Source: Dehalococcoidales bacterium (lineage in GTDB: Bacteria; Chloroflexota; Dehalococcoidia; Dehalococcoidales; RBG-16-60-22). Taken from it: DNA of 64,000 nucleotides. The position numbers and the translations under genes were made by a program. Positions 26,165-26,961 of the stretch are shown here, piece by piece. How positions within the stretch are numbered: position 1 is the first letter of the stretch; each line of letters starts with the position of its first letter. The stretch covers positions 49,485 through 113,484 of the forward strand of contig JBAZGT010000003.1 in the NCBI GenBank assembly GCA_041652735.1. Reading direction: 5' to 3'. Below the pieces are notes generated by a model. It ran no database searches. It worked only from the letters and a program-made list of their open reading frames with translations, and was not told where the DNA came from.

Positions 26165-26191
26165 CCTCTAAAAGAAGGCGTGTGTTTGGCC

Positions 26192-26261
26192 ATAGGTCAT
26201 ATGAGGGTAGTGCAAGAGGCATATATGTATATTATCTTTAGTAATCGAAGCTGGGTATCAA
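26192..26261. repeat. 70-bp perfect direct repeat, copy 1 (AT-rich core, ends in GTATCAA)
   Basis: Identical to 26458-26527. Similarity extends on both flanks (ggcgtgt... upstream, GTATCA triplet downstream). Confidence 0.9.
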
Positions 26262-26457
26262 TCCCGTATCATATGGAGTATCAATGACGGCCTCTTGGTC
26301 ATTACTTCTCAAAGAAGGCGTCCCTCTTCCCATCGGTCATAAGTACATATTAACTCTAGTATTCGGCTACGGGTTGCGGCCTTGTTGCGTACCTTGTTGC
26401 GGGGAAAATCGCCGGGCTTTTCCGCCCTGAACTTCCAGGGATGGCGTGTCTCTTGGC

Positions 26458-26527
26458 ATAGGTCATATGAGGGTAGTGCAAGAGGCATATATGTATATTA
26501 TCTTTAGTAATCGAAGCTGGGTATCAA
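26458..26527. repeat. 70-bp perfect direct repeat, copy 2
   Basis: ataggtcatatgagggtagtgcaagaggcatatatgtatattatctttagtaatcgaagctgggtatcaa. Period 266 bp. Confidence 0.9.
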
Positions 26528-26961
26528 CCCTGTATCAGGCCCTGTATCAATTGACATAATATCTATCCTCTCGGCTTTCGCCTTAAATCCGCGCTCGACT
26601 CCGAAAGAATGTCAAACGTGCCGCGCAGAAAAGATGGGCAGCGCATGGGCCGGAGGGGCATACCCCGCTGCAATCCTGGCCGAAGCCAGCCCGGCTACGG
26701 GGCGGAGCCGTTAACTTGCGAGTTAAGCGCCCGCAGGCATGCCGTTTTCTGGCGGCCAGGCCGCGCGGAAGGCGGGGAGGGCATGGGTAAGGCTATCCCA
26801 CGCGCGCCGTACCGCGGATTGGGGTGCCCCGCGCCTCACGCGAGGTGTGTTATACTCCCGCGCCCAGGGCAAATAGGGCACTCATCCGGGTATGCCCCGC
26901 GCCTCCCGTGCCGCGTTTTCGGGCTTTCCCTATTTCGCCTGGGGATGTATAATCGGGAAAC

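Follow-up and report, generated by a model that had tools for sequence, protein, structure and literature searches.

Phage satellites have been described mainly from Proteobacteria and Firmicutes. In satellite phage P4, which encodes the α primase–helicase, the cis replication region crr consists of two direct repeats of ~120 bp, each with three short iterons bound by α, and a separate origin (ori) carries the same iterons. The origins of the Staphylococcus aureus pathogenicity islands (SaPIs) and other phage-inducible chromosomal islands (PICIs) contain six to twelve penta- or hexanucleotide iterons each, to which the Rep helicase binds through its winged-helix domain; in SaPIs the hexanucleotide iterons directly follow rep, grouped around an AT-rich core, and are opposed in direction on the two sides of this core (PMC9371898). 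The characterised satellites that we compared carry a replication gene of their own, i.e. Rep in SaPIs (PMC9371898), RepA in the PICI-like elements (PLE), and a primase in the phage-inducible chromosomal minimalist islands (PICMI). Here we analyse a 64,000-nt stretch of a Dehalococcoidales genome (contig JBAZGT010000003.1, positions 49,485 to 113,484; hereafter the window), in which an integrative element of ~8.7 kb at tRNA-Met (21916–30622) contains a 0.4-kb non-coding region with phased hexamer arrays and AT-rich boxes. We tentatively read this region as a cis-acting site for protein assembly on DNA, most likely the replication origin of a satellite-like element without its own initiator, a reading in which our confidence is a little less than even.

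Like the SaPIs and PICIs, the element is small and integrative and combines short iterons, nine here where at least about six would be expected, with AT-rich DNA; in addition, arrays of GTTGCG with the same spacing as in the window lie past Rep-like primase/helicase genes in viral contigs. The locus differs from these origins in that no rep gene lies upstream, where a 97-aa XRE-family helix–turn–helix (HTH) protein is encoded instead, in that all iterons point in one direction and are of two hexamer types, and in that each triplet of iterons has its own AT box (~28 nt, 18 nt from arrays A and B described below) rather than one central AT-rich region. The likeness to P4 lies in two direct repeats of 112 nt (88% identity), each with three GTATCA hexamers, which resemble crr. 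There is, however, no sequence similarity to crr, and the window element has neither an initiator gene nor a second array site, although a related element (L291; contigs are given by our L numbers) has two units 3.1 kb apart.

Three tandem units with phased hexamers

The region begins directly behind the XRE gene (25871–26164, plus strand), whose stop codon abuts the first of three tandem paralogous units, A, M, and B. All three follow a common plan on the plus strand: the AAGGCGTG..GGTCATA box comes first, then the AT box, then a spacer of 18 nt, and finally three hexamers at 11 and then 12 bp. Unit A (26161–26300) comprises ATGACC..AAGGCGTGTG..GGTCATATGA box, the AT box CATATATGTATATTATCTTTAGTAATCG (26220–26247), which reads TATATT on the plus strand and GATAAT (26236–26231) on the minus strand, the 18-nt spacer, and array A, GTATCA-N5-GTATCA-N6-GTATCA (26255–26283; hexamers at 26255, 26266, and 26278). 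Unit B (26427–26566) is a copy of unit A, and its array B (26521–26549; hexamers at 26521, 26532, and 26544) has the same hexamers at the same spacing. Between them lies unit M (26301–26426), a diverged third copy (76%) with AAGAAGGCGT..GGTCATAAG, a shorter AT box, and array M, GTTGCG-N5-GTTGCG-N6-GTTGCG (26373–26401; hexamers at 26373, 26384, and 26396). A profile of the unit searched with nhmmer gave E values of 2.9e-25, 0.075, and 4.1e-27 for units A, M, and B, respectively. The AT boxes of units A and B, with 20% GC, are the joint-lowest-GC 30-nt segments in the element.

The original prediction for this DNA had listed two perfect 70-bp repeats, two GTATCA triplets, and a GTTGCG triplet between them at 11/12-bp phasing. 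All of its repeat and hexamer coordinates proved correct, except that the exact identity extends over 71 nt rather than 70 (26191–26261 = 26457–26527, which includes 26192–26261 = 26458–26527) and is enclosed in the 112-nt repeat at a spacing of 266 nt. The third, partial copy of the left flank that had been placed at 26311 is also present (AAAGAAGGCGT), as part of the complete diverged unit M that bears the GTTGCG triplet. Features that had been treated as separate, each of them real, together form one structure of three tandem paralogous units.

The region holds nine exact hexamers in three phased triplets, with the general form GTWNCR (GTATCA or GTTGCG), and no inverted hexamer copies in 26000–27000. 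When the whole window was scanned for hexamers of any sequence present three or more times with 10–13 bp spacing, only these three arrays were found, compared with a mean of 0.06 arrays per window (maximum 1) in block shuffles and three arrays in 536 kb of unrelated viral DNA. The arrays are far beyond chance. The degenerate pattern GTWNCV-N5-6, three times, gave no further match on either strand beyond the known arrays. We also considered an assembly artefact, which was ruled out because the A and B flanks and spacers differ and because a contig from another sample (L290, SRR18595300), 100% identical to the window, ends at window position 26219 inside the repeat. Such a break is the expected branch of a de Bruijn graph at a repeated sequence, and thus gives independent support for a real repeat.

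Units in related elements and selection on the hexamers

Three independent relatives (L294, L291, and L002) carry a unit and then the same 350-nt block, and the unit stands where it does in the window, directly after the XRE gene where one exists (L291 and L294, whose XRE homologues have 67–70% identity). L294, with an integrase 94% and a capsid 84% identical to those of the window element, has a single unit with the array GTATCC-N5-GTAGCA-N5-GTAACA. In L291 one unit (u2) follows the XRE homologue and a second, shorter one (u1) follows the integrase gene; both have the array GTTGCG-N5-GTATCA-N6-GTTGCG, combining the two hexamers of the window, and both sit between convergent genes. L002 has a single unit without a clean array. 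Unit B is the positional orthologue of the single units of the relatives. The 70-bp perfect repeats are absent from all three relatives, which hold one unit each at this position; on this comparison the long stretch of identity between A and B arose by recent duplication or conversion and is not the functional feature.

In both pairs of paralogues the spacers have diverged around unchanged hexamers. Units A and B of the window agree in 18 of 18 hexamer columns and in 3 of 11 spacer columns, and the two L291 units in 18 of 18 and 5 of 11, respectively. The N5/N6 spacing is kept in five of the six arrays, and 18 nt separate the AT box (ATTATC) from the first hexamer in units A and B of the window as well as in L291 u1 and u2, even though the spacer of u2 differs in sequence. 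Since the hexamers stay identical while the spacers diverge, both the hexamers and their phasing are under purifying selection, supporting the view that the hexamers are putative protein-binding sites. The phasing described for the window recurs in related elements, and the structure is real and functional.

The conserved non-coding block (26579–26928, plus strand; nhmmer E = 8.6e-103) lies directly downstream of unit B and follows the unit in every unit-bearing relative (L294 8491–8840, L291 6794–7143, L002 7250–6902), with weaker matches in L283 (7499–7179) and L281 (12668–12405); L291 u1 has no block after it. Its mismatches to L002 by codon phase are 45/38/37, showing no periodicity, compared to 106/37/27 for the capsid gene, and a hidden protein gene in the block was ruled out on this ground. 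A paralogue of the last 125 nt of the block (22583–22707, minus strand; E = 8.1e-9) lies upstream of a gene for a ribbon–helix–helix (RHH)-like, Lys/Ala-rich protein and has an equivalent in L294 (5143–5264, minus strand), which suggests a reused upstream regulatory module. The capsid module, unit, and block are collinear between window 23330–26934 and L002 10093–6895, and this collinear stretch is inverted relative to the tRNA-Met/integrase frame.

Conservation of the block at ~70% without coding periodicity, together with the plus-strand TATATT, a −10-like box upstream of the arrays, could also point to a non-coding RNA gene or long leader, in which the AT box would be the promoter and the hexamers and block would lie in one RNA. 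We consider this very improbable. No Rfam match was found even at E ≤ 5; folding z-scores were +0.76, −1.30, +1.06, +1.01, +0.21, and +1.64 for the units and −0.37 and −1.11 for the block, not better than shuffles; and the RNAalifold covariation terms for four sequences were negligible (−0.44 and −0.75 kcal/mol). A known RNA family or structured RNA was ruled out by these results. Furthermore, there is no fixed −35, as a 20-nt indel shifts it between units, and the absence of the block after L291 u1 does not fit a single transcript. Neither is there a conserved small open reading frame (ORF) in the region: the 48-aa ORF at 26284–26430 spans unit M and is absent in relatives, and the minus-strand ORFs from 26222 and 26488 have only their repeated first 10 codons in common, so that none of the three was retained as a gene. 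Structured RNA and a conserved small ORF, two of the outcomes that the original prediction named as evidence against an origin, were thus not seen.

A proposed origin served in trans and its alternatives

Domain and profile searches bore out the earlier statement that genes for Rep, a primase, or a helicase are missing from the element; terminase, portal, and tail genes are missing as well. In an origin served in trans, the 11- and 12-bp spacing would place the hexamers of a triplet on one face of the helix, where an initiator supplied from outside, most plausibly the primase–helicase of a helper phage or a co-resident element, would bind them cooperatively and open the adjacent, easily melted AT box. 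The three tandem units would multiply the binding sites. That a protein binds here, what kind of protein it is, and that replication is the outcome are all points that we infer.

The array M pattern, GTTGCG-N5-GTTGCG-N6-GTTGCG, occurs in 51 IMG/VR stretches (~33 non-redundant). In seven independent sequence types (the L303 group, L314, L322, L327, L328, L330, and L333) the array lies 24–600 nt past the stop codon of a primase/helicase gene, which is the position of the SaPI iterons downstream of rep and was therefore counted for the origin reading. The association of GTTGCG arrays with primase–helicase genes is strong, but not exclusive. L328 and L333 are also among several small elements with a major head gene after the (T)GTTGCG array.

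More distant relatives offer a second comparison. In L158, L288, L297, and L299, an HNH gene is followed by a gene of 124–153 aa, the product of which aligns with the first 100 residues of several PHROG ‘replication initiation protein’ families (E 1e-9 to 1e-11). Its predicted structure is a winged-helix fold; the fold search gave generic winged-helix matches only, TubR among them, and a sequence search of the PDB gave no match. Directly after the stop codon of this truncated initiator-like gene come three to six arrays of different 6–9-mers at 10–12 bp phasing, with CAAAGCTAA-type leaders between them, and the arrays end in a conserved box, AAATGTTGCGACAGCYTRCCGTTAWCGG, and an 80-nt purine-rich (GAAGTAGAA)n AT tract (L158 4886–5420, L288 11944–12320, L297 5614–6030, and L299 7440–7860). 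L158 and L297 have array types in common, in a different order. By its anatomy, the array region after the initiator-like gene is origin-like. No homologue of that gene was found in the window.

The neighbourhood of these arrays also bears on a packaging site (pac or cosB-like). There, the hexamers would dock a protein of the small-terminase type, either from a helper or the element's own 69-aa HTH protein (23458–23667, minus strand), which would direct the helper terminase and the HNH nuclease of the element to satellite DNA. Sites for small terminase subunits typically contain short phased repeats, as in the R sites of lambda cosB and the hexamers of P1 pac. Because the element has genes for a capsid, a decoration-like protein, and an HNH endonuclease but none for a terminase, a foreign packaging machine must recognise it, and the array region of L075, L158, L159, L288, L297, and L299 lies just downstream of HNH or of HNH and one further gene. 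In the window, however, the arrays are 3 kb from HNH, and the 69-aa HTH gene does not co-occur with the unit, being present in L074 and L281, which have no clear arrays, and absent from L291, L294, and L002. The array-adjacent gene in the relatives resembles replication initiators rather than small terminases, and full phages with related capsids yielded no related sequence. A packaging site is therefore improbable in our view.

Relatives with four to six different arrays side by side, more than one initiator needs, raise the question of titration. As decoys, the arrays would mimic iterons carried by invading phages or competing elements and, in defence, sequester the initiators or regulators of these, much as a cloned phage origin gives resistance in the lactococcal ‘Per’ phenotype. 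The defence-type cargo of the family (Ser/Thr kinase, restriction–modification systems, DndB, Vsr, and Eco57I-like genes) and the occurrence of GTTGCG arrays as origin-type sites of other elements are consistent with such a role. It is nevertheless speculative, the conservation of array types between L158 and L297 fits a housekeeping role equally, and no matching phage was found, leaving a pure decoy with a slim chance. A combined possibility, which we consider rather unlikely, is that a family without an initiator, or with a truncated one, displays iteron cassettes that match the origins of other elements and, through their variety (GTATCA, GTTGCG, and the four to six array types of sister elements), may borrow or titrate the initiators of several helpers, a modular origin that would double as sensor or decoy.

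The anatomy of the unit can be explained about as well by an activator-dependent promoter on the minus strand. In this case GATAAT in the AT box (26236–26231) would be the −10, with the hexamers at about −35, −47, and −59, and a helper or host activator would fire a transcript antisense through the XRE gene into the capsid operon; beyond the transcription start, the conserved GGTCATATGA and GGCGTGTG boxes would act as operators. Direct repeats with 11-bp phasing likewise replace the −35 at a fixed distance to the −10 in promoters of the PhoB/OmpR type and in phage late promoters. Proximal hexamer, 18 nt, and GATAAT share one arrangement in units A and B of the window and in the two L291 units (unit M has GTTAAT there), and the flanking T and proximal hexamer of A and B read TTGATA, which agrees with the −35 consensus at five of six positions. 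Conservation within the unit is highest at the AT box, with 36 nt identical between L002 and L294. The unit keeps one orientation with respect to the capsid operon across the window, L294, L291 u2, and L002, the last of which has no repressor gene between the two, and the mapped promoters of the element combine −10 boxes of the TGTATAAT type with very short leaders.

Several results argue against such a promoter. A consensus scan of both strands predicted no promoter within the units, we identified no activator gene, and promoter-like sites already precede the capsid operon in the divergent region 25591–25790. The leaderless ORF from 26222 is not conserved, with no ATG in L002 and with A and B products that diverge after 10 residues. 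Since the L291 units lie between convergent genes, a promoter would have no obvious job there; from u1, behind the integrase gene, a minus-strand transcript would merely be antisense to integrase. Taken together, we regard an activator-dependent promoter as possible but unlikely. The divergent region upstream of the capsid operon (25591–25790, minus strand) contains three tandem units of ~90 nt, each with a GGCATCCGAAGG motif and a promoter-like pair (TTGGCA-16-TATGCT, TCGGCA-16-TACAAT, and GGGGCA-17-CATAAT).

The element holds three small DNA-binding proteins. The promoter of the HTH gene (TTGACG-16-TATAAT, 25833–25873, plus strand) is overlapped by a perfect palindrome, TGTATAAT-AAA-ATTATACA (25853–25871), which is retained in L294 and L291 and is likely the auto-operator of the XRE repressor. 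As XRE probably binds the palindrome at its own promoter, the hexamers probably serve another protein and are not the primary XRE operator. The 11–12-bp phased runs of direct repeats also resemble the centromeres parC (R1) and tubC, which small RHH or winged-helix proteins bind head-to-tail; the element encodes an RHH-like protein with a basic, Lys/Ala-rich tail (21991–22434, minus strand), and TubR appeared among the fold matches of the winged-helix protein of the relatives. However, the motor genes ParA, ParM, and TubZ were not found in the element, and the RHH-like gene is 4 kb from the arrays and absent from L291.

Arm-type sites of tyrosine integrases in attP likewise take the form of phased direct repeats in triplets. 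In viral contigs, triplets of GGTATCAC at 11–12 bp spacing are common 40–70 nt upstream of tyrosine integrase genes (L184, L276, L210, L165, and ~10 near-identical contigs), where they are probably arm-type sites. Arm sites lie within ~200 bp of the core, whereas the arrays of the window are 4.0–4.3 kb from both att repeats (21916–21953 and 30585–30622), and arm-type sites were ruled out for the window arrays by this distance. A further contig, L262, has two GTATCAC triplets 210 bp apart that flank AT-rich DNA.

The selected hexamers and the phasing in relatives are among the points in favour of an origin served in trans, as are the low GC of the AT boxes, their fixed 18-nt distance to the arrays, the place of both L291 units between convergent genes, and the assembly of one family member (L158) as a circle; a number of observations weigh against it. 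Searches with Pfam, PHROG, NCBIfam, and tblastn gave no rep, primase, or helicase gene, whether in the element or in the remainder of the window, and we found no helper with these iterons. The original prediction had proposed that the iterons be sought next to rep or primase genes in other elements, and this succeeded for GTTGCG but not for GTATCA: the helper search with GTATCA triplets was swamped by coding tandem repeats of 6 or 12 nt, and the non-coding GTATCA-type triplets in viral contigs mostly adjoin integrase rather than rep genes. The GTTGCG matches came from searching for the pattern itself, and many others of them lie in coding DNA or in other contexts, among these a tape-measure gene and positions next to integrases or a terminase. 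In IMG/VR the mixed L291 array had no match (0), and searches for the non-coding region by conserved 16–17-mers and for the unit by its AT box gave chance matches only. Within the region itself, all nine hexamers are direct repeats, unlike the opposed SaPI iterons, the AT boxes are short, and two different hexamers would need one tolerant binder or two binders. The window unit differs in sequence from the arrays of the distant relatives, with weak homology limited to a shared RGCTRR leader and the overall design, and the promoter has nearly equal explanatory power for the anatomy. The earlier proposal of an origin or other multi-protein assembly site is thus supported as to selected, putative binding sites and stays tentative as to replication.

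The element, its family, and what the arrays may mean

The borders of the element are the 3′ end of tRNA-Met on the left (attL, 21916–21953, plus strand) and a 36/38 repeat of it on the right (attR, 30585–30622, plus strand). The capsid operon consists of the genes for a 71-aa protein (p71), a Mu gpT-like major capsid protein (24288–25211, minus strand), a virion structural or decoration-like protein, and the HNH endonuclease (22748–23296, minus strand). To the right of the 350-nt block lie genes for a membrane protein, the Ser/Thr kinase, and a tyrosine integrase. We found no helper prophage elsewhere in the window, the rest of which holds only ordinary chromosomal genes. These include a tandem family of paralogous genes of ~440–480 aa (ORFs 12113–20847), with 108 shared 25-mers in one run (13638 vs 19541). 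Immediately right of attR, at 31000–46000, GC falls from ~58% to 39–53% over genes for radical SAM/SPASM proteins, an ArsA-type ATPase, patatin, and MMPL, which may be a second, unrelated island. The related element L294 is flanked by URO-D-type methyltransferase genes.

Homologues of the capsid number ~70, the closest of them in Dehalococcoidales metagenome-assembled genomes, and occur in similar elements of ~7–9 kb that adjoin integrases. The cargo of these elements varies and is defence-like, including restriction–modification systems, Vsr, DndB, an Eco57I-like enzyme with an SNF2 helicase, and a kinase. The L158 contig (8712 nt), from the same sample as the window-identical contig L290 (SRR18595300), has a 21-nt terminal overlap giving a circle of 8,691 bp, and its integrase ORF is intact only across the junction. 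The elements form a satellite-like family in Dehalococcoidales that is apparently undescribed, and our literature search found no description of it.

To our knowledge, Dehalococcoidales have no genetic tools and few known mobile elements. This branch of the family keeps a capsid gene, defence cargo, and a strongly selected iteron/AT-box module, yet no initiator; what is new is that iterons of the satellite type occur with no resident initiator, in repeated modules that each join an AT box to a triplet. If the region is an origin served in trans, it would set a new lower bound on the genes that a satellite requires, and the hexamers would provide a sequence handle for the helper. If it is a promoter, the module would be a switch that senses the helper. 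In either case, the hexamer arrays would be the place to seek the contact between helper and satellite.

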